From an uncultured Alphaproteobacteria bacterium (GTDB taxonomy: Bacteria > Electryoneota > RPQS01), in NCBI GenBank assembly GCA_964444755.1, contig CAYUIF010000001.1:238402-302401 (forward strand): a stretch of 64,000 bases of DNA, in the 5' to 3' direction. Of the stretch, positions 3,960-62,750 are shown one piece after another. The position numbers and the translations under genes are program-made. Within the stretch, counting starts at the first letter, position 1. Every line of letters begins with the position of its first letter. The notes below the pieces were generated by a model. It was not told the origin of the DNA. It made no database searches and worked only from the letters and a program-made list of their open reading frames with translations.

Positions 3960-4372
3960 TGACCCCTCCCGGGATGGGTTGTGGTTTGTCCGAGGTGCGA
4001 GCAAAGCAGGCGCGGCGCGCGGCTTTACGGGGAGTTGCGTGTCAACGTGGCTTTGCACGGACGGCGTCGGGTTTGGATTCGGATCGGACTATCCGTTCGC
4101 ACCGTTCCCGACGGCCTCTTACGCCGGAATCTATCGTTATCGCCGAGGCAGATCCCCGATCTGCCCGGAACGCACACCTATCGCCGTGCGCGGGTCCGTG
4201 ACCCGACTGGCGCTCTCTGTTATTCGCCGAGGAGGGTCCCCAGACCCTCCCGGAATCTTCATCGCCGAGGCACCCGTCCGCGGGTGCCCGGAACGTAATC
4301 GTTGTTCGCGGCGGCGAATCCCCAGATTCGCCCCACCGTGATTGGCCGGGGTGTCCGTACTCCGCGCGAAAT
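3960..4372. repeat. Cluster of REP/BIME-like palindromic elements
   Basis: Several units of the form TTCGCCGAG-[GC-rich hairpin]-CCGGAA(TC), e.g. ggcagatcccc/gatctgcc, ggcacccgtccgcgggtgcc, ggagggtccccagaccctcc. The same flanks and hairpins recur at more than 8 other intergenic sites in the window. Confidence 0.6.
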
Positions 4373-5843: not shown

Positions 5844-6007
5844 GGTCAGTCTCCTCTCGGTTGAACTGCCTATCCCTTAGCAAGTGCAGAGAAGAAAATC
5901 GATCTATCCTGCGAAGAAAGAATCCGAAATAATGACGGTCTCTGACAGCCTTGTCTCCGTCGCCCGGGGTGTCCTTGCACCACGTCACAAATCTATTTAA
6001 TTATCAA

Positions 6008-6036
6008 CGGCGCGGGGTGTTGCCACCCCGCGCCGC
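6008..6036 (-). terminator. GC-rich hairpin downstream of the aldehyde dehydrogenase gene
   Basis: ggcgcggggtg-ttgc-caccccgcgcc forms a perfect 11-bp stem, followed on the minus strand by AT-rich sequence. Confidence 0.4.
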
Positions 6037-6050
6037 TCTATATTATCCGC

Positions 6051-9939: not shown

Positions 9940-10066
9940 CGCCGCATGGATTTTCCCATGCGGCGTTTTGTATCTGTATTCTGTAGGGGCACAGCGCGCT
10001 GTGCCCTTCTCTTCGCCGAGCGAGGTCGCCGACCTCGCCGGAATCATTCACTTTTTGTATCGGTTG
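9940..10066. repeat. REP-like palindromic elements
   Basis: tgtaggggcacagcgcgctgtgccc (GTAG + hairpin) and ttcgccgag-cgaggtcg-cc-gacctcg-ccggaatc. Confidence 0.55.
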
Positions 10067-10635: not shown

Positions 10636-10858
10636 GGTAGGGGGTTTAAGCAGCGCGGAATCCGCCCGTGTTCTTCCGTCGGGGCACAGCGTGCTATGCC
10701 CAAATCGCGGCGGCACGTGCTCCACGTGCCCCGCTAACCGCGCACTGCCATGTGGCGCCACAACAATCTTTTCGCCGAGCGACATCGCTGACCTCGCCGG
10801 AATCCATCATCGACGTGCGGGGTATCCTTACTCCGCACGCTCTTTGTGACGCGGTTTT
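10636..10858. repeat. REP/BIME-like palindromic element array
   Basis: ggggcacagcgtgctatgccc, ggcacgtgctccacgtgcc, ttcgccgag...ccggaatc, gtgcggggtatccttactccgcac. Confidence 0.55.
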
Positions 10859-25289: not shown

Positions 25290-25546
25290 CCCAGCTTGCT
25301 GGGCTTTGTTTCGCCGAGTGGGGTTTGTTTCCCCCTGCTTCAGCGGGGGGATGAAAGGGGGGCGTATTCCGGGCACAGCACGCAGTGCCCCTACGGAAAA
25401 GAACGGGCGGGTACGCTTGCACTTTACCCGCCCCTACGGAAGACGGCCATAATGAATTATGGCCCTACAAAACGCAAGATGTTACAATCGGTAGGGGTCG
25501 TTCGAGAACGACCCGCGGGCGGTTCGCGAACCGCCCCTACAGCACG
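25290..25546. repeat. Composite REP/BIME-like element
   Basis: ttcgccgag...; gggcacagcacgcagtgcccctac; ggccataatgaattatggccctaca; cgcgaaccgcccctacagcacgtt. This block is about 80% identical to 51215-51480. Confidence 0.6.
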
Positions 25547-25843
25547 TTACTTGAGCAGCACCATCTTCCTTATCTGTGACCGCTCCCCCGCCTGCACCCG
25601 TGCGATATACACTCCCGACGGCAACTCACTTGCGTCAAACACCTGCCGATGCTCTCCGGCATTCAGCCGCCCGAGGTTTTCTTCATAGATGGTTTGGCCG
25701 AGAACGTTGTAAACACTCACCATCACCAGCACCGAGTGTGGAAGAGTGAAGGATAGAGTTGTCGTAGGATTGAAGGGATTGGGATAAACCAAAAGATTGA
25801 AGGATGAGGGATAAGGAATGAACGGATCATCTACACCGACCCG
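25547..25843 (-). pseudogene. Detached T9SS C-terminal sorting domain, separated from the upstream FG-GAP gene by an in-frame TAG
   Basis: Continues in frame after the TAG at 25844-25846 as RVGVDDPFIPYPSSFNLLVYPNPFNPTTTLSFTLPHS...MVLLK. The 51589-53967 paralog has the homologous DPFIPQSSSF..YPNPFNP join intact. Confidence 0.6.
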
Positions 25844-27061
25844 CTAGCTTGTATCTCCGGCCACGACGATACATCGTCCGCGCCAGCCTTCCGTGTCCAG
25901 ATCATCCCACGCTCCGATGGCGAAATCATCAATCCCGTCTCCGTTCACATCCCCCAAGCCCGCCGCTGTCTGAAGACTGACGAGATTCTGCCAACCCCGA
26001 CCATAAATCGTCCACGCCGGTTGAGAGTTAAGCGCCGACTGTCCGAGATACAGCGACAGAACGCCCCACCATGATCCGGGACAATAGCTCCGGATTAACG
26101 CCATGTCCTTGAAACCATCTGCATTTATGTCCCCTAAGCTTGCAACCACTTCCGCACCGGACCCACAAGGGTAGGACAATTGGACATCTGCAACGGAATG
26201 AAGAACGGAACCACCCAAATGAACATCTGCACCACCTTGATATGTATAGATCAGCTCGTCGCAACGGTTTGCATTTAGGTCATTGACAATCCCTTCCGGA
26301 AATATCCGCATGTTCGGCCATGTATAAGCCGGAATTGTGTCGGGATATGTGTTTCCGAGGAAAATGTAAGTCGTGTTTGACATCAAGGTCGCACTCACCC
26401 AATCGCTATATCCGTCATCATTCAAATCGCCGTAGGATTGGGGGAGTGCTTGGTAGGAATTCCCCGATGGGCTGGTTCGACTCCAATCCGGTATCCAATC
26501 AATTATATTGTTGCCATAGAAAATGTCAATATAATCAGGGATTGTATGATACCAGAAAAGATCGGATTGTTCGTCGCCATTGAAATCACCCACGGTTCCG
26601 AAATAGTCGTTTCGTCCAATTAGTAGGCTGTATTCCGGAATCGTATCCGCGGCATTGCCACCCCAGAAGACATCAACTATGCAGTAATCAAAACTTTCCG
26701 ACCGGCGTTTCGTGAACCAATCCACATACCCATCCCCATTCACATCGTTCAGAATCCCCGCCATTCCCCAGCCCCACAGATTGGACGGACCGAAGATCGT
26801 CATGTAAGGAATGTTGGAGGGTGGATTGCCGCCGTGAAAGAACTCAACATATGGCCACTGATTCCCCACAACAATCCGGTTTCCCCCCGCCGCTACCGCC
26901 CAATCATCGAATCCGTCATCGTTCTGATCGCCCAGCGGAAGGATCTCGTAGCCGTATAGCGAGCTATCCTGTAATCCACTCCGATCCCAGATCACCTCCG
27001 GCGACCACGGCTGGGCAAGCAGGGAAGATGCGAGGAACAGGATAATGAAGAGAGGTTTCAT
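25844..27061 (-). CDS. Secreted FG-GAP/VCBS-repeat protein (truncated before its T9SS C-terminal domain)
   Basis: Signal MKPLFIILFLASSLLAQP. Repeated D.N.DG..D calcium-binding FG-GAP-type loops (DQNDDGFDDW, DVNGDGYVDW, DLNDDGYSDW, DINADGFKDM, DVNGDGIDDF). Confidence 0.75.
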   Translation of the reverse strand: MKPLFIILFLASSLLAQPWSPEVIWDRSGLQDSSLYGYEILPLGDQNDDGFDDWAVAAGGNRIVVGNQWPYVEFFHGGNPPSNIPYMTIFGPSNLWGWGMAGILNDVNGDGYVDWFTKRRSESFDYCIVDVFWGGNAADTIPEYSLLIGRNDYFGTVGDFNGDEQSDLFWYHTIPDYIDIFYGNNIIDWIPDWSRTSPSGNSYQALPQSYGDLNDDGYSDWVSATLMSNTTYIFLGNTYPDTIPAYTWPNMRIFPEGIVNDLNANRCDELIYTYQGGADVHLGGSVLHSVADVQLSYPCGSGAEVVASLGDINADGFKDMALIRSYCPGSWWGVLSLYLGQSALNSQPAWTIYGRGWQNLVSLQTAAGLGDVNGDGIDDFAIGAWDDLDTEGWRGRCIVVAGDTS

Positions 27062-27560
27062 GGTACGGTCTTTAGTAGGCGGTTAGCCGGGCAGGTTGAG
27101 AACCTGCCGCGGCGAGGTCGTTGCGAGAAGATTCCGGGCAGATCAGGGGATCTGCCTCGGCGAAGACGGGCACGGCATGCCGTGCCCCTACGGAAGACGG
27201 CCATAATAAATTATGGCCCTACAAGACGGACGCGATGAATCGGCCCCTACAGGACGATGCGTTGCAGTTGTTCCGGCGGGGTAGAAAACCCCGCTCGGCG
27301 AATACATGGGCACAGCACGCTGTGCCCCTACGAAAACAAAGATTCCGGCCAGGTTGCGGTCTGCGACCTTAACCACGGCTCGGCAAGATCGTTACGTGAA
27401 GATTCCGGGCAGATCAGGGGATCTGCCTCGGCGAAGACGGGCACGGCATGCCGTGCCCCTACCGCGTGTGCGATTCCGGCAGGGGTAGGGACCCCGCTCG
27501 GTGAATACGCGTGCAATGGTGCAATATGCAGGGCTTTACAAGGAAAGGCAATTGAATCCC
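27062..27560. repeat. REP/BIME-like element array
   Basis: gattccgggcagatcaggggatctgcctcggcgaa (twice); gggcacggcatgccgtgcccctac (twice); ggccataataaattatggccctaca; ttccggcggggtagaaaaccccgctcggcgaa; gggcacagcacgctgtgcccctac. Confidence 0.65.
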
Positions 27561-27722
27561 GTATAGCATCCGTTACAGCAACTTAAAGTATTGATTATGT
27601 TGCAATCAGCTTGACTTCCCTGAAAATTTGGGGTATATTAACCATGTGCTATAGTTAATCGGCTAAGCCGTTTGAATAGGCTAAAAAGCCGATGAAACAA
27701 CGATGCTAAGGTACTGATTATT

Positions 27723-28544
27723 GTGAGCAAATTTTCTTACATACGTCTCGCGGTCATGAGCCTGATTGTCATTGGAAGTTTCTGGTTCATGGACCATATC
27801 AGCCAGCCTCGTGGTTGTCCTCCCCCAGCTTTCTCTGCCTCCACGGATATTCGCTCCACCGATAATGCCCCGCAATCTTTGTTCTCCGATTCCCTGCCCC
27901 CGGTGGATGTCACGTCGCTCCCGTTTGTCGCTCAGGACAATACCTGTTTAAGCAGCCTGCAGGCGGATTTATCGGCCTGTACCGGATTGTTGTCCGGTGG
28001 CGAAGCCCGCGAGTATCGAATTACTTTAACCAAAGATAACTATACACTCATCATTGAAGCCGAACCCGGCGATCTGCAATTCGATATCAGTTTGGCGGTG
28101 TTCGATAAGCAGAGCCAATGTCTGGCGGGTGTGGATATGGAAGGGGAAGGCGGAATCGAACGAACGGAACTCGCGCATCTTGCGGCAGGACAATACAAAC
28201 TGGTGGTGGGCGGCTATCGCGATAACTGCGGGCTTTATCAATTAACCATTCGCGAAGATCGGCCGCCCGCCACGGAAATCGTGAGCAGCGCCGTCACCGT
28301 CGGACCCAACGGCACGAGCGTTCGCTGGACCAGCTTTGCCGAAGTCGGTTTAGCCCACTACAATCTGTACCGCATCACCGATAGCGAACGCAAGCGCGTG
28401 GCGACTTACCGCAGTCACGGCAGCCCGGCGGACTTCGCCGATTACCGGTTCTTCGACCGCAGCTACACCGCCAATATCCGCTACGAACTGGAAGCAGTCG
28501 CCCGCGACGGCCGCACCACCCTCCGCGAACTGAAGGTCGGCTGA
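27723..28544 (+). CDS. Membrane-anchored hypothetical protein with PPC-like beta-sandwich domain
   Basis: N-terminal TM helix LAVMSLIVIGSFWF. YRITLTKDNYTLIIEAEPGDLQFDISLAVFD...GQYKLVVGGYRDNCGLYQLTI resembles a pre-peptidase C-terminal domain. Confidence 0.6.
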   Translation: MSKFSYIRLAVMSLIVIGSFWFMDHISQPRGCPPPAFSASTDIRSTDNAPQSLFSDSLPPVDVTSLPFVAQDNTCLSSLQADLSACTGLLSGGEAREYRITLTKDNYTLIIEAEPGDLQFDISLAVFDKQSQCLAGVDMEGEGGIERTELAHLAAGQYKLVVGGYRDNCGLYQLTIREDRPPATEIVSSAVTVGPNGTSVRWTSFAEVGLAHYNLYRITDSERKRVATYRSHGSPADFADYRFFDRSYTANIRYELEAVARDGRTTLRELKVG

Positions 28545-50944: not shown

Positions 50945-50978
50945 GGGCGACTCTTCGGAGTCGCCCGTTTTTTTTCGC
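50945..50978 (+). terminator. Rho-independent terminator
   Basis: gggcgactc-ttcg-gagtcgccc, then GTTTTTTTT. Confidence 0.7.
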
Positions 50979-50979
50979 C

Positions 50980-51480
50980 GATGCACCCGTCCGCGGGTGC
51001 CCGGAACTTTCGGAATTCGCCGCGGCAGGCTCTCAGCCTGCCCGGCTAACCAGCACAATCGTTGGTCATCCTGAACGCCGTGAAGGATCTCGCTTACGCC
51101 ACCGTGGCGGGTGTGTCACCCGCCCGGTAATATGCGGGTCTCCCTCCGTTTACGGGGGGACGGAAGGGGGGATTCGCCGAGGCAGATCCCCTGATCTGCC
51201 CGGAATCTTGTAGCGCCCCGCTTGCTGGGCTTTATTCGCCGAGTAGAGTTTGTTTCCCCCTACTTTAGTGGGGGGATAAAAGGGGGGTGCATTCCGGGCA
51301 CAACCCGCTGTGCCCCTACCGAAGACGGCCATAATGAAGTATGGCCCTACAAAGTGCGGGAATTTTACATCTGGGAGGGGTCGTTCGCGAACCGCCCCTA
51401 CAGCACGTTGCATCGCAGTAATGATCGCCGCGGCAGGTTCTTAACCTGCCCGGCTCACCGCGAATAATCGTTTGTCATCC
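50980..51480. repeat. REP/BIME-like element array
   Basis: ttttcgccgatgcacccgtccgcgggtgcccggaac; cgcggcaggctctcagcctgcccggct; ttcgccgaggcagatcccctgatctgcccggaatc; gggcacaacccgctgtgcccctac; ggccataatgaagtatggccctaca; cgcgaaccgcccctacagcacgtt. Confidence 0.65.
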
Positions 51481-51553
51481 TGAACGCAGTGAAGGATCTC
51501 TCTTCGATGTTAGGGATTCTTCAGCCTGCTGACGCAGACTTCAGAATGACACT
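51473..51553. mobile_element. MITE-like ~80-bp element with ~12-bp terminal inverted repeats
   Basis: TGTCATCCTGAAcgcagtgaaggatctctcttcgatgttagggattcttcagcctgctgacgcagacTTCAGAATGACA. A second full copy lies at 54081-54160 and a partial copy at 51064-51100. Confidence 0.45.
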
Positions 51554-51588
51554 CTCTTGTGAAGGCTTTTAAGTTTTAAGTTTTAAGT

Positions 51589-53967
51589 TTATTTCAAGAG
51601 CACTATCTTCCGCACTTGCGACCGCTCCCCCGCTTGCACTCGGGACAGATATACTCCCGATGGTAGTTCGCTTGCATCGAACAGATGCCGATGTTCTCCC
51701 GCGTTCAACCGCCCGAGGTTTTCTTCATATACGGTTTGGCCGAGGACGTTGTAAACGCTCACGGTTACTGGTGCCGAGTGCGGCAACGTGAAGGATAGTG
51801 TTGCAGTAGGATTAAACGGATTGGGGTAAGTGGAAAGAGTGAAGGATGAGGATTGAGGGATGAAGGGATCTCTCGCAGATTGGGATGACAAATCCATTCG
51901 CAATAAGAAACCGGTAGAAGGTTGCGGGAACATGGCATTAGAAGTGATCGGAAACTCATTGGAGAATGTGTGTCCGGCTAACCAAATAGCACCGGGATGG
52001 TCATATACCAAGGCATCCGTCCATTCGTCGTATTCTCCACCGATATACGTGCAGTATTCCAACGCTGTAAAATCGGAAGACAACCGACAGAGAAACAAAT
52101 CTTCGCCGTTCTCTTCACCGGGGTGAAGTGTACTGTCATAGGCATCGGGAGTTACGGGTAAATCGCCGCTATGGGTAATCCCAGGAATCAGAATCGACAC
52201 CGCAGATTCCACATAGGCATTATTCCAAATATCATAATCACTACCGCCGAAAAATGTCCCCCGCAGAGGAGTATTCGGCAATTGAAAATCCAAGATGAAT
52301 CCATCATAAAATGAAGGTGGTCCGGGATTCAATCCCCCCGGTGGCATCGGGAAGTTGGGATTATTCGTATAGCCGATTAGCAATAACCGGTCGTCCCCTT
52401 GCACAATGATTTGGCAAAGATAGTCGTTTTCATATCCGCTATGGGGCGCGCCCAAATAGGATGCATATTCGACACTATTACTATTCAAATCCACTCGCGC
52501 GAAATACCCCGAATACCGCCCCGTTGTCTCGGAGATGAATGCATCGGGAGTGGTTGGCAATCCTCCTGCACCATTATAGTCTAATAACACAATCCACAGA
52601 TATCCCGGCGATAGAACCACAAGATCCATGGGAAACCATCTTCCACCCAAAATCGGACTGTAAAAGGTCGAATAGACTAATGCCCCAGTTGTGTCAAAGA
52701 TTGCTAAAAATGTGCATTCAATACCTACGAACTCGCCCCACATCGCACCGGGAGTAACGGGAAAGTCTGAGGATTGTGTCCTCCCAGAAATATAGAATCG
52801 CCCCAGTGAATCTACCTCACAGTCGGATAAGGATTCATCATCCACACCTCCCAAATAGGTGCAGAACAGCAGACTATCTCCGTGTGATGTCAAATGAATC
52901 ACACCAAGTTCACTGGAAGCATTTACTGTATCAAATGCGTCCGGCGATAGCGGCCAACCGGATGAAGCATTACTTGCGATATATATGGAATTATCAGTAA
53001 GCGTTCGAACTTTACCGTAAAATCCGCTACCTCCCGAGATATAGGTTGAAAAGATCAGGGAATCGGCATTCGGTGAGAATTTCATCAGGAAACCACCGCC
53101 AGTGCCGGTCTCCTGAAACGCGCCGGGAGTTGTGGGAAAGTTTGCGCGCCAAGTATCTCCATGAATCAATTTATTGCCAAGACCGTCCTTTGTCATATCA
53201 AAGACTTCATCGCGAATTGACCCGGCAATGTACGTACTATACACCAGCGGATCAATCACCAGTTCTGCACTGCGGTTGTACTCCTCACATATCAGACCAT
53301 AACGATTGTTTCCCAACAGCCGATACTGCACCCGAATGCTGGCTTGCCTGCGGCTTTCGATCTGAAAAGCGAACGGGGCCTTTTCGTAAAGATCGCCCAC
53401 GGACGTGACCAAAACCAGCTTGCCCTCGCCATCCATCCGCAACGGCTCATCCAAGCCCTCATACTGAACCACGATTCGGCTGACATCGGCACCCGGCTTG
53501 ACATGAAAAAACGTTTCCACGCCGCGCGGATCGGCCTTATATTCCACATCAATCCCCGGCCACACCTCCTTGGCAATCACTCTGCCGTAGTTAGGCACCC
53601 GGCTCTTCCACTGGCTTTGGTCTCTTCCCTTGAAATAGTTGCTGTAGCTGGTGAGCCTGTCCTCCGGCACCAGTTCGTACTGTTCATTACACCCCACTAA
53701 CCTCACCATCACCGCATGCCCGCGCACCGTCCGCGCCGTATCTTGAGGCACGTATCTTTCGGCTTCATCCCTCATCCTTCGTCCTTCATCCTTTGCTGTC
53801 ACGGCAATCGTCATCCCCGTCCCGGTCAGAAAATAGCTCGCGTTCCCTACGTCACACCGATAGGCAAACTCCCCCTCCCACTGACCCTGATTCGGCTCGA
53901 AGTGGAAGGGAGCGGGGAGCGCGAAAGCGACGGAAACGAAAAGAAGAGTGAGGAAGAAAGGTTTCAT
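51589..53967 (-). CDS. T9SS-sorted beta-propeller (SBBP-like repeat) protein (792 aa)
   Basis: Signal MKPFFLTLLFVSVAFALPAP. C-terminal YPNPFNPTATLSFTLPHSAPVTVSVYNVLGQTVYEENLGRLNAGEHRHLFDASELPSGVYLSRVQAGERSQVRKIVLLK is nearly identical to the detached C-terminal domain at 25547-25792. Confidence 0.8.
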   Translation of the reverse strand: MKPFFLTLLFVSVAFALPAPFHFEPNQGQWEGEFAYRCDVGNASYFLTGTGMTIAVTAKDEGRRMRDEAERYVPQDTARTVRGHAVMVRLVGCNEQYELVPEDRLTSYSNYFKGRDQSQWKSRVPNYGRVIAKEVWPGIDVEYKADPRGVETFFHVKPGADVSRIVVQYEGLDEPLRMDGEGKLVLVTSVGDLYEKAPFAFQIESRRQASIRVQYRLLGNNRYGLICEEYNRSAELVIDPLVYSTYIAGSIRDEVFDMTKDGLGNKLIHGDTWRANFPTTPGAFQETGTGGGFLMKFSPNADSLIFSTYISGGSGFYGKVRTLTDNSIYIASNASSGWPLSPDAFDTVNASSELGVIHLTSHGDSLLFCTYLGGVDDESLSDCEVDSLGRFYISGRTQSSDFPVTPGAMWGEFVGIECTFLAIFDTTGALVYSTFYSPILGGRWFPMDLVVLSPGYLWIVLLDYNGAGGLPTTPDAFISETTGRYSGYFARVDLNSNSVEYASYLGAPHSGYENDYLCQIIVQGDDRLLLIGYTNNPNFPMPPGGLNPGPPSFYDGFILDFQLPNTPLRGTFFGGSDYDIWNNAYVESAVSILIPGITHSGDLPVTPDAYDSTLHPGEENGEDLFLCRLSSDFTALEYCTYIGGEYDEWTDALVYDHPGAIWLAGHTFSNEFPITSNAMFPQPSTGFLLRMDLSSQSARDPFIPQSSSFTLSTYPNPFNPTATLSFTLPHSAPVTVSVYNVLGQTVYEENLGRLNAGEHRHLFDASELPSGVYLSRVQAGERSQVRKIVLLK

Positions 53968-54328
53968 GGTACGGTCTTTAGTAAGCAGTTAGCCGGGCAG
54001 GTTGAGAACCTGCCGCGGCGATGTCGTTGCGATGCGGTTCTTCCGGCGGGGTAGAAAACCCCGCTCGGCGAACACACGAGTGTCATCCTGAACGTAGTGA
54101 AGGATCTCTCTTCGATGCAAGGGATTCTGGACGCCCGCTGACGCGGTATCCAGAATGACACATTAATGTCACGTTCCGGGCACCCGGGGACGGGTGCCGC
54201 GGCGAAGACGGGCACGGCATGCCGTGCCCCTACCAAACGGACGGTACAACCCCCCTTTAATCCCCCCGCTGAAGCAGGGGGAAATATATACACGGGCGGG
54301 TGACACACCCGCCACGGTGATGATAGGT
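53968..54328. repeat. REP/BIME-like array including a MITE-like copy (54081-54160)
   Basis: The first ~60 nt after the gene start are nearly identical to 27062-27120 (shared upstream block). ttccggcggggtagaaaaccccgctcggcgaa; gggcacggcatgccgtgcccctac; ccccccgctgaagcaggggg. Confidence 0.6.
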
Positions 54329-58637: not shown

Positions 58638-58742
58638 TATTGATTCGCCAAGCGCGGGCACGGCGTGCCGTGCCCCTGCCGATAGGTTCGATTGATTTAC
58701 GTTTTCTGATTTCTCGTTTCTCATTTCAAATTTCTTTTGCCC

Positions 58743-60741: not shown

Positions 60742-60771
60742 AAACGGGCACGGCTTGCGCCGTGCCCGTTT
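60742..60771. terminator. Bidirectional hairpin between convergent genes
   Basis: aaacgggcacggc-ttgc-gccgtgcccgttt (13-bp stem). The stem sequence is also related to the REP family. Confidence 0.5.
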
Positions 60772-61499: not shown

Positions 61500-61600
61500 A
61501 TGAGGAGGATTGCAAGGGAAAGACGGGCGGTTCGCGAGCCGCCCATAAAGGAAAGGGCACAGCACGCTGTGCCCCTACGGAAGAAATATTTGATGATTGC
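61500..61600. repeat. REP-like elements
   Basis: gggcggttcgcgagccgccc; gggcacagcacgctgtgcccctacggaag. Confidence 0.55.
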
Positions 61601-61602
61601 GG

Positions 61603-62463
61603 TTAACGTTGTCGCTGCTGATTAATCATCTCAAGAACCTCTTGGCGTTCTCGTTGATAATTTTCCAATTGGAACTGCCGTTCTGTTGGACCCGAATCAT
61701 ATGAGAAAACCGTTATTCGACCATTGGCCTCAAAATCCAAATCCATCAAGTGCAAAGCGTCTTCGTACCGATTAGCACGTTTAGCGGATATGATTGCCCA
61801 GCCAAGACCTTCTGGATTTTGCCACCCTAATGCAACTAAAGAATCAGCTATTTCAACAGCTTTATCATAGTCGCCTTTGAAGTATGCTTCCTTAACAAAT
61901 GAAGCTTGGGTGATTTGTTTTGTTTTCTCGTCGCATGGTGCGATAAATTGCATGGGATAGATGAATATCAATTGTCCCGTTGCCGGGGAATCATAAGTTA
62001 CCCTAAGGGATATTAGCTGACCTGCATACTGTTCAGGAATCGACATAACAAACTTATAACAGACTCCATCAATTCTCTGACGTTCGGATATCTCATTATT
62101 TGCCTGGGCAATGCTGTCCCACTCTTTATCCTTGAATTCGATCATCCGTGATAACTCAAGGAGTTCAAGTAGAACATTATCCGGCACGAATTGCTTATCG
62201 TTAGTGTGCCCGGCTTCAATGGTGATCTCCGGCGGCCATTCTTTGTTTAAAGACGTATAGTATGGTGTTGATAGTCCGAATACGCGGACGCGAATCCCTT
62301 CCCGTCCACCCACTATACAGCCAGGAGGATTGCATTCCCAACCGCTATCATATCCTATTGAGAGCACATCTAATTTGTACGTTGTACTTCCATAAGAAGT
62401 GGTAGCGAGGTATCCTTGAAATATGCACGTGACAACAATCATCACATTAACAAGCCAGCGCAT
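61603..62463 (-). CDS. Hypothetical secreted protein encoded in an AT-rich (~42% GC) island
   Basis: Start MRWLVNVMIVVTCIFQGYLATTSYG (signal-like). No recognisable family. GC content is far below the window average. Flanked on both sides by REP arrays. Confidence 0.55.
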   Translation of the reverse strand: MRWLVNVMIVVTCIFQGYLATTSYGSTTYKLDVLSIGYDSGWECNPPGCIVGGREGIRVRVFGLSTPYYTSLNKEWPPEITIEAGHTNDKQFVPDNVLLELLELSRMIEFKDKEWDSIAQANNEISERQRIDGVCYKFVMSIPEQYAGQLISLRVTYDSPATGQLIFIYPMQFIAPCDEKTKQITQASFVKEAYFKGDYDKAVEIADSLVALGWQNPEGLGWAIISAKRANRYEDALHLMDLDFEANGRITVFSYDSGPTERQFQLENYQRERQEVLEMINQQRQR

Positions 62464-62504
62464 TGGATATCTCCTTAACTCAACGAACTTATGATAGCGA
62501 AAAA

Positions 62505-62750
62505 CGGGCGCACACATGGGTGCACCCCTACAGAACACGGCCATAATGAATTATGGCCCTGCTACTACAGACGGCCTCCGGCCGTCTGATGGATCCAACG
62601 GGCGCGATGAATCGGCCCCTACGGGATGCCGGGCGGGTGGCACACCCGCCACGGCAAAGATTCCGGCGGAGCGGAGACGCTCCGCTCGGCGAATCCCCCC
62701 CTACCCCCCCGCTGAAGCAGGGGGAAAAGATTCCGGGAAAGACAATCGTG
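62505..62750. repeat. REP/BIME-like array
   Basis: cacggccataatgaattatggccctgctac; gggcgggtggcacacccgccacggc; ttccggcggagcggagacgctccgctcggcgaa; ccccccgctgaagcaggggg. Confidence 0.6.

Follow-up and report, generated by a model that had tools for sequence, protein, structure and literature searches.

BIME-like mosaic arrays with GTAG-footed hairpins in a 64-kb bacterial contig segment, probably of the RAYT subclass 2.4 family

Introduction

Among described repeats, those closest to the elements considered here are the repetitive extragenic palindromic (REP) sequences tagged with GTAG, a super-family spanning several phyla (Di Nocera et al. 2013, PMC3733652). As reported there, GTAG REPs occur in Proteobacteria, Cyanobacteria, Chloroflexi and the PVC (Planctomycetes-Verrucomicrobia-Chlamydiae) group, and only CGTC REPs are found in Bacteroidetes and Chlorobi. 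One set of REP-associated tyrosine transposases (RAYTs, or TnpA_REP), subclass 2.4 of Quentin et al. (2018, PMC6006769), equals RAYT group 4 of Bertels et al. (2017, PMC5581495); its distribution is patchy and takes in Cyanobacteria, Bacteroidetes and other phyla. The REPs of this subclass begin with three G-C pairs at the foot, 'double foot' versions of them exist, and a REP can stand in frame within the tnpA_REP gene (PMC6006769). The supplementary REP table of that paper lists under subclass 2.4 the sequences GTAGGGGCACAGCGCGCTGTGCCCCTAC (Chloroflexus aggregans), GTAGGGGCACGGCATTGCCGTGCCC (Calothrix), GTAGGGGCACGGCGTGCCGTGCCC and GTAGGGGCGCGATTCATCGCGCCC. Here we analyse a 64,000-nucleotide stretch of contig CAYUIF010000001.1 (hereafter the window), in which an earlier note had drawn attention to a run of short palindromes. 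We put at roughly 0.8 the probability that this run, at 27085-27505, is one of at least ten mosaic REP arrays resembling bacterial interspersed mosaic elements (BIMEs), with GTAG hairpins that belong to the subclass 2.4/group 4 family.

Results

The GTAG hairpins match a published REP family

Judged by their letters, the GTAG hairpins of the window, of the form GTAGGGGCAC(A/G)GC...GC(C/T)GTGCCC, belong to an already described REP family and are not a new one. The Chloroflexus aggregans REP GTAGGGGCACAGCGCGCTGTGCCCCTAC is letter-identical to window positions 9983-10006, the published GTAGGGGCACGGCGTGCCGTGCCC has the same hairpin as the unit at 58656-58679, and the published GTAGGGGCGCGATTCATCGCGCCC is the intact form of the units that we call A5. 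It is this identity with published subclass 2.4 REPs that makes the A-type elements of the window members of that family.

The same REP is widespread. Scanning one genome per species with GTAGGGGCACRGCNNNGCYGTGCCC returned at least 120 loci in about nine to ten phyla, the hosts among the matches listed being Nostocales and other Cyanobacteriota, Chloroflexota, Acidobacteriota, Planctomycetota, Latescibacterota, Desulfobacterota, Dormibacterota and Fraserbacteria; in many of these loci CTAC also stands on the 3' side. Such a spread is explained by the published GTAG super-family and the published distribution of subclass 2.4. A metagenome scan with the lineage-specific junction GCYGTGCCCGTCTTCGCCGMG gave 74 loci, of which 73 are chance coding matches in GC-rich DNA; only one (L183) holds the REP, and this lineage is absent among the 74. 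A scan of viral contigs gave only 5 loci, and phages are therefore not an obvious carrier of the REP. In the locus of one Acidobacteriota metagenome-assembled genome (MAG; L032, 6720-6910), the GGGCACGGC REP stands in inverted, REPIN-like pairs about 165 nt apart.

Unit types, abundance and folding

The earlier note had described four recurrent unit types; all four are present and enriched over chance, at positions within about 25 nt of those it gave. Expected counts were obtained from dinucleotide shuffles of the window. The A1 pattern GTAGGGGCACRGC, at no more than one mismatch, has 10 matches against 0.10 expected, at 9983, 10678 (GTCG variant), 25371-25394, 27168-27191, 27308-27331, 27439-27462, 51296-51319, 54210-54233, 58656-58679 (GCAG variant) and 61555-61578. 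The A2 pattern GTAGGGCCATAAT has four true copies (25445-25468, 27199-27222, 51327-51350 and 62539-62562), and the poly-C pattern CCCCCCGCTGAAGCAGGGGG (C units) three exact copies and one diverged copy, against 0.01 expected. As to the third type on the note's list, here called Ba, 13 copies were found, although the one it had placed at 4195 is merely degenerate. The foot motif GTAGGGSC occurs 16 times against 2.0 expected, each time followed by a hairpin, and three A-type units have the foot variants GTCG or GCAG.

The window thus holds about 20 GTAG-footed hairpins (ten A1, GGGCACRGC; four A2, GGCCATAAT; the rest A3, A3b, A4 and A5), about 21 bulged B units without GTAG, four C hairpins and three palindromic modules of about 85 nt (D). 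The B units comprise 13 Ba, (T/A)TCGCCGAG-hairpin-CCGGAA(T)C, that is, of the TTCGCCGAG-hairpin-CCGGAATC type; five Bb, TCGCCGCG...CCGGCT; and three Bc, CCGTG...CCGG. All units are extragenic. They lie in 10 arrays; of the 37 gaps that measure at least 40 bp, 10 hold an array (17% of the window is intergenic). The arrays make up about 4% of the window and are spread as ten sites over 58 kb. The arrays mix A1-A5, Ba/Bb/Bc, C and D modules, with recurrent linkers such as GTCTTC, which bears out the earlier description of mosaic arrays of mixed unit types at intergenic sites.

Representative units are predicted to form stable hairpins as single-stranded DNA (ssDNA), at z-scores from -4 to -6.5. 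A-type stems are 8-10 bp long, with ssDNA folding energies of -7 to -10 kcal/mol (z from -4.5 to -6.5), and every one of them begins GGG or GGC and finishes CCC or GCC, leaving three G-C pairs at the bottom. Units within an array run mostly head-to-tail, with no alternating inverted orientation, and the window has no inverted A-A pairs; the minus strand carries 15 of the 16 GTAGGGSC feet; by site the count is 7 of 9, without significance. None of the B units, whose flanks are TTCGCCGAG and CCGGAATC, has a CGTC tag.

The array at 27085-27505

In the flagged array, short palindromes are densely packed into the space that separates the start of a minus-strand gene (ATG at 27061) from a plus-strand gene starting at 27723, the region 26900-27700 having been read directly. 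All units of this array are on the minus strand. A Bb unit at 27085-27116 (CTCGCCGCG-GCAGGTTCTCAACCTGC-CCGGCT) stands 24 nt upstream of the ATG of a type IX secretion system (T9SS) cargo gene, 25549-27061, and is followed by a Ba unit at 27132-27164 (TTCGCCGAG-GCAGATCCCCTGATCTGC-CCGGAA), a bulged hairpin with a CCG/CGG base, an A bulge and an 8-bp stem. Three GTAG-family units come next: an A1 REP at 27168-27191 (GTAG-GGGCACGGC-ATG-GCCGTGCCC), with the canonical GTAG foot of the RAYT subclass 2.4 type; an A2 REP at 27199-27222 (GTAG-GGCCATAAT-TTA-ATTATGGCC); and an A5 REP at 27228-27250 (GTAGGGGCCGATTCATCGCGTCC), a decayed form of the published GTAGGGGCGCGATTCATCGCGCCC. A second Ba unit (27271-27302), with the hairpin CGGGGT-TTTCT-ACCCCG, has an identical copy at 54041-54072 and precedes another A1 REP at 27308-27331 (GTAG-GGGCACAGC-GTG-GCTGTGCCC). 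By direct reading, B-like flanks TTGCCGAG...CCGGAATC then surround a longer, 30-nt core (27341-27387); a Ba unit and an A1 REP at 27403-27462 follow, and a slightly decayed Ba unit (TTCACCGAG-CGGGGTCCCTACCCCTG-CCGGAA) closes the array at 27474-27505.

Repeat finding brings out an 82-nt direct repeat (27110-27191 and 27381-27462, 95% identical), whose second copy includes the unit pair at 27403-27462, and three copies of GGGCACRGC-nnn-GCYGTGCCCCTAC in 26900-27700. A CRISPR-like array, a tandem repeat and, at the strand switch near 27.5 kb, an origin of replication were considered and rejected: the spacing is irregular, TRF reports nothing tandem in the flagged interval, and the GC-skew signal is weak.

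The leaders of two T9SS-cargo genes, 27062-27130 and 53965-54030, are nearly identical, first codons (ATGAAACC) included. In both a Bb hairpin lies 24-28 nt upstream of the ATG (at 53991-54022 in the leader of gene 51589-53967), and from 27062 and 53965 onwards the two have different Ba tops between common flanks.

Local duplication versus dispersal

Might the units have spread only by segmental duplication and gene conversion in this neighbourhood, without any transposition? The 82-nt direct repeat, the two T9SS genes with a common 5' leader plus Bb unit and the arrays at 25296-25540 and 51210-51405, which are clearly paralogous over about 200 nt, speak for such an origin. Between the latter two arrays the differences are one whole GTAG unit and the fusion of two similar hairpins; differences of this kind between arrays point to insertion or deletion at the level of the unit, alongside segmental duplication and recombination between similar hairpins. 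Against a purely local origin, the ten sites differ in their unit combinations and flanks, isolated single units exist at 58656 and 61555, and identical REPs occur in about nine phyla and also beside RAYT genes.

A related assembly provides a further observation. Contig L121 (4.7 kb, GCA_049322395.1), from a sister strain, matches the window at 97.8% identity along 4 kb and ends at window position 10021, exactly where a B hairpin starts (the Ba unit of the array 9983-10043). A break in a short-read assembly is expected at such a point if the repeat is genome-wide. In the next relatives, L122 and L123, whose glutamate dehydrogenase (GDH) is 75% identical, the array was not found at the place corresponding to the L121 end, and a different GTAGGGGC hairpin lies there. 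The ten sites over 58 kb, the L121 break inside an array and the presence of the REP in many phyla together answer the concern, voiced with the original observation, that the elements might be one local duplication, and we regard purely local spread as very improbable.

RAYT genes near the same REP in other genomes

Other genomes give independent support to the RAYT link. In 120 loci chosen by REP motif only, a RAYT of the subclass 2.4 clade lies within 8 kb of the REP in four (L080, L068, L021 and L115, among the matches listed), against a chance expectation of about 0.19 (Poisson p = 5e-5). In L080 (Nostoc) the REP stands on both sides of the RAYT gene; in L068 it lies inside the gene. Among family models this clade best matches that of NCBIfam for REP-associated tyrosine transposases, at a score below the equivalog cut-off, and the clade's only PDB match is 4ER8 (E. 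coli TnpA_REP). Homology searches return thousands of relatives, under the Joint Genome Institute (JGI) name 'REP element-mobilizing transposase RayT'; named hosts among the matches listed, at 55-70% identity, are KSB1, Chlorobi, Kapaibacteria, Pirellulaceae, Nitrospira, Meiothermus and Bipolaricaulota, and in two such searches none of the 120 matches listed in each is named Calditrichota. A RAYT-like gene in L032 (7200-8000) was considered as the cognate enzyme and rejected, being flanked by an unrelated GTAC-CGCTGGCCTCCGGCC hairpin.

Some of these genes contain the REP themselves. The peptide VGARHAVP, the in-frame translation of GTAGGGGCACGGCATGCCGTGCCC, is present in 60 of 219 RAYT homologues (P0121-P0339, among the matches listed), 10-20 residues after the HUH motif. 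At the DNA level, four VGARHAVP genes hold the exact palindrome or a compensated variant (L198 10271-10350, L199 616-645, L200 9063-9090 and L201 1510-1552). In-frame REPs are thus seen in RAYT genes of Kapaibacterium, Thermodesulforhabdaceae, KSB1 and Chlorobi, the KSB1 copy being a compensated variant (GGGCGCGGC...GCCGCGCCC). A built-in copy of this kind could seed REP families after horizontal transfer. In these genomes no further REP was found within 10 kb.

In Type I restriction-modification operons of Thermodesulforhabdaceae, KSB1, Chlorobi and Meiothermus, RAYT genes of the clade cognate to the window REP are placed between hsdS and hsdR, and in many cases stop and start codons overlap. 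Two more RAYT genes have restriction-modification or defence genes around them. The genes in these contexts are L199 340-978, L200 8769-9425, L201 1222-1827 and L203 6001-6597, and also L198 10001-10681 and L202 6001-6666. The Nostoc copies in L080 and L021 are mutually syntenic and stand outside restriction-modification operons. PADLOC has no model for these RAYT genes, and a quick literature search found no report of the hsdS-RAYT-hsdR association.

Hairpins without GTAG: DNA palindromes or RNA elements?

The earlier note had taken GTAG beside a hairpin as the hallmark of RAYT-mobilised REPs. For the GTAG hairpins this fits, given their identity to subclass 2.4 REPs and the RAYT neighbours elsewhere. 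The B, poly-C and D units have no GTAG and lack this hallmark.

Sixteen distinct B units align in register. Their common structure, 97% paired, combines a CCG/CGG base with a 1-nt bulge and a further 8 pairs. Seven of the 11 stem pairs show two-sided changes and none a one-sided change, and there is no G-U among 176 stem cells. Compensated pairs without G-U mark a DNA palindrome, which reads identically whichever strand is taken, and not an RNA fold. At least 8 different hairpin tops exist, each recurrent at distant arrays (for example GCAGATC-CCCT-GATCTGC at 27132, 27403 and 51173, and CGGGGT-TTTCT-ACCCCG at 27271 and 54041), from which it appears that variants multiply as sub-families.

These features bear on an alternative view, in which the hairpins are not mobile DNA but are under selection as RNA, whether as terminators, as mRNA stabilisers or as leader structures of T9SS-cargo genes. 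The units are, after all, extragenic, a Bb hairpin lies 24-28 nt upstream of two T9SS gene starts, and secondary roles of REPs are known from other bacteria (PMC3733652). A terminator-like hairpin is also present between convergent genes: AAAC-GGGCACGGC-TTGC-GCCGTGCCC-GTTT at 60742-60771, an A1 stem without GTAG, which may be an exapted bidirectional terminator. On the other hand, units point both with and against transcription, a T tract is missing from most of them (terminator-like sites number 3 against 3.5 expected), and the missing G-U pairs are not what an RNA fold would leave. Rfam returned nothing for the units at gathering scores or at E <= 1. Nor does gene adjacency help: Por_Secre_tail domains mark several flanking genes as T9SS cargo, but the preference for such genes that the earlier note had claimed is not significant, arrays being found in 5 of 11 T9SS-adjacent gaps and 5 of 26 others (Fisher p = 0.11). 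We consider it improbable that selection on RNA explains the hairpins as a whole; a secondary, co-opted RNA role is possible, and one candidate for it, with AAAC and GTTT as flanks, is the GGGCACGGC hairpin at 60742-60771.

The D module is found at 51065-51091, 51474-51560 and 54082-54160; it begins with GTGTCATCCTGAACGyAGTGAAGGATCTC and finishes with CAGAATGACAC. It is predicted to fold weakly (z = -1.5) and has no Rfam match. In a Planctomycetota locus (L077, at 6677) there is a D-related motif that contains an inserted hairpin.

One enzyme or two?

How the B units came to reside beside GTAG REPs is a separate question. They could have been moved by an enzyme other than the subclass 2.4 RAYT, in which case the arrays would be joint graveyards of at least two independent systems; a Bacteroidota-type subclass 2.6 RAYT or an IS200/IS605 TnpA are the candidates. 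B units have no GTAG, and their conserved CCG-N-G/CCGG base with its 1-nt bulge is unlike that of A units; 15 of the 21 have no A1 next to them, other genomes with the A REP have none in 986 kb of loci, and Bacteroidetes subclass 2.6 RAYTs are described as flanked by 'atypical secondary structures' (PMC6006769), a table in the same paper holding nothing with the B architecture. Yet 6 of the 10 A1 REPs have a B unit 3-5 nt downstream in the same orientation, which suggests coupling, and no second transposase was seen. A second enzyme is therefore a serious but, in our judgement, rather doubtful proposition.

A more far-reaching combination, which we hold only tentatively and think unlikely to be right in full, is that the B hairpins are a new REP class and that, at the same time, the subclass 2.4 RAYT carries its own REP and seeds it by way of restriction-modification operons. 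The bulged-base hairpins with swappable tops would then hijack the RAYT or have a mobilising enzyme of their own. An identical 20-nt palindrome would be found in distant phyla because the RAYT clade holds an in-frame copy of it, and the clade would be a passenger between hsdS and hsdR, seeding REP populations after each transfer. The hsdS-RAYT-hsdR gene order and the GTAG-less hairpins are leads for a dedicated survey, and the basic reading of the locus is unchanged by them.

Discussion

How the arrays may have formed, and what weighs against this

Our preferred explanation remains that the window carries mosaic arrays built around subclass 2.4 REPs. A single-copy RAYT, which we infer to be encoded elsewhere in the genome, would bind the folded hairpin in single-stranded DNA, take the 5' GTAG as a guide, and cut and rejoin beside the hairpin. 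Units of 25-35 nt would thereby be copied in trans, and new units landing beside existing ones would give rise to head-to-tail arrays. Segmental duplication, together with recombination between hairpins of similar sequence, would later rearrange whole arrays. The B units (CCG-N-G...CCGG base, variable 8-bp top) are a second, lineage-specific palindrome family in the same arrays. Signs of mobility and modularity are the whole-unit differences between paralogous arrays, the nested insertion at 10678-10802, the recurrent B variants and the L121 break.

Several observations weigh against this explanation. The window contains no RAYT, as had been stated from the outset: its best open reading frame (ORF) reaches only E = 4 against a profile of 219 RAYTs, so that a cognate transposase in this organism is a matter of inference. 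Some genomes elsewhere (L198-L203) have this RAYT with its internal REP and no REP expansion nearby, from which it follows that presence of the gene alone is not the cause of proliferation. Head-to-tail arrangement, dominant in the window arrays, is rare for GTAG REPs (PMC3733652), and part of the copy number stems from segmental duplication, as in the 82-nt repeat and the paralogous arrays 4 (25296-25540) and 6 (50974-51560). Finally, B, C and D units were not seen in the 986 kb of loci from other REP-bearing genomes; we treat them as separate, lineage-specific families residing in arrays beside GTAG REPs, without GTAG or a link to RAYT.

With the window, the documented REP/RAYT family extends to Calditrichota, and one exact REP is common to very distant phyla along with its transposase clade. 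This is useful for the automatic annotation of such repeats and for the study of REP/RAYT movement between lineages; dense, well-preserved mixed arrays of this kind also break short-read assemblies and yield spurious ORFs.

The other arrays and their surroundings

Array 1 (4139-4293, plus strand) consists of three Ba units with the tops GCAGATC, GAGGGTC and GCACCCG and a degenerate unit near 4180-4215. Array 2 (9983-10043, plus) is an A1 REP followed by the Ba unit inside which L121 ends, and array 3 (10678-10802, plus) an A1 of the GTCG variant and a Ba unit about 70 nt apart with a Bb-like unit between them, an arrangement that looks like a nested insertion. Array 4 (25296-25540, minus) holds C, A1, A4 (GTAGGGGCGGGTA...), A2, A3b (on the plus strand) and A3. 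Array 6 (50974-51560) has Ba, Bb, D, Bc, Ba, C, A1, A2, a fused A3b/A3 hairpin, Bb and D, and array 7 (53991-54319) has Bb, Ba, D, Bb, A1, C and Bc. A single A1 REP of the GCAG variant lies within a B-type 5' flank (TTCGCCAAG) at 58644-58679 (minus), and at 61525-61578 (minus) an A1 REP is joined by an untagged A3-type hairpin (GGGCGGCTCGCGAACCGCCC). Array 10 (62539-62724) comprises A2 (GCAG variant), A5, Bc, Ba and C.

The GDH of the window is 100% identical to a protein of a Calditrichota MAG (NCBI naming). The longest ORF at 61603-62544 (minus) begins within the A2 REP at 62539-62562 (MAVFCRGAPMCAP...), and its annotated N-terminus is probably a spurious, REP-encoded extension. An in-frame TAG at 25844-25846 (minus) splits the T9SS-cargo gene next to the flagged array into an FG-GAP part (25844-27061) and a Por_Secre_tail part (25549-25843); it could reflect a pseudogene, an assembly error or read-through. 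The sister-strain contig L121 has, in its positions 1-669, a different upstream gene, encoding a membrane protein, in place of window 5844-6005, with a terminator hairpin at 6006-6037 common to both and 97.8% identity from 6006 onward; this is a strain-level difference in gene content without REP association.

Comparison with known systems

The REPs of subclass 2.4 (PMC6006769, PMC5581495) have, like those in the window, a 5' GTAG directly at the foot, three G-C pairs there, stems of 8-10 bp and loops of 2-4 nt, and the REP table of PMC6006769 includes GTAGGGGCACAGCGCGCTGTGCCC and GTAGGGGCACGGC...GCCGTGCCC. In contrast, the window copies are single-foot and stand in head-to-tail mixed arrays with no RAYT in the window, and their host phylum, Calditrichota, is not listed for the family in the cited literature. 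With the broader GTAG super-family (PMC3733652) they share the form of extragenic stem-loops of 20-40 nt with an unpaired terminal GTAG, clustering, sub-families with complementary stem changes and the capacity of several families to be combined in one genome, whereas the head-to-tail dimers that dominate here are rare there.

E. coli BIMEs (RayT/TnpA_REP, PDB 4ER8) are likewise intergenic mosaics of hairpin types with short conserved linkers and a GTAG guide, but they alternate inverted Y and Z REPs of subclass 2.2, while units in the window mostly share one orientation and half of them have no GTAG. REPINs (Bertels and Rainey 2011, PMC3116915) are also non-autonomous and thought to be copied by a single-copy RAYT; a REPIN, however, is an inverted REP pair folding into one long hairpin, of which the window has none and L032, with the same REP, has pairs. 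By analogy, the miniature derivatives of IS200/IS605 elements (palindrome-associated transposable elements, PATEs, and miniature inverted-repeat transposable elements, MITEs) may be compared as well, their subterminal hairpins being recognised in ssDNA by a Y1 HUH enzyme, although the window units, at 25-35 nt, are without the defined left and right ends and the cargo region of those elements.

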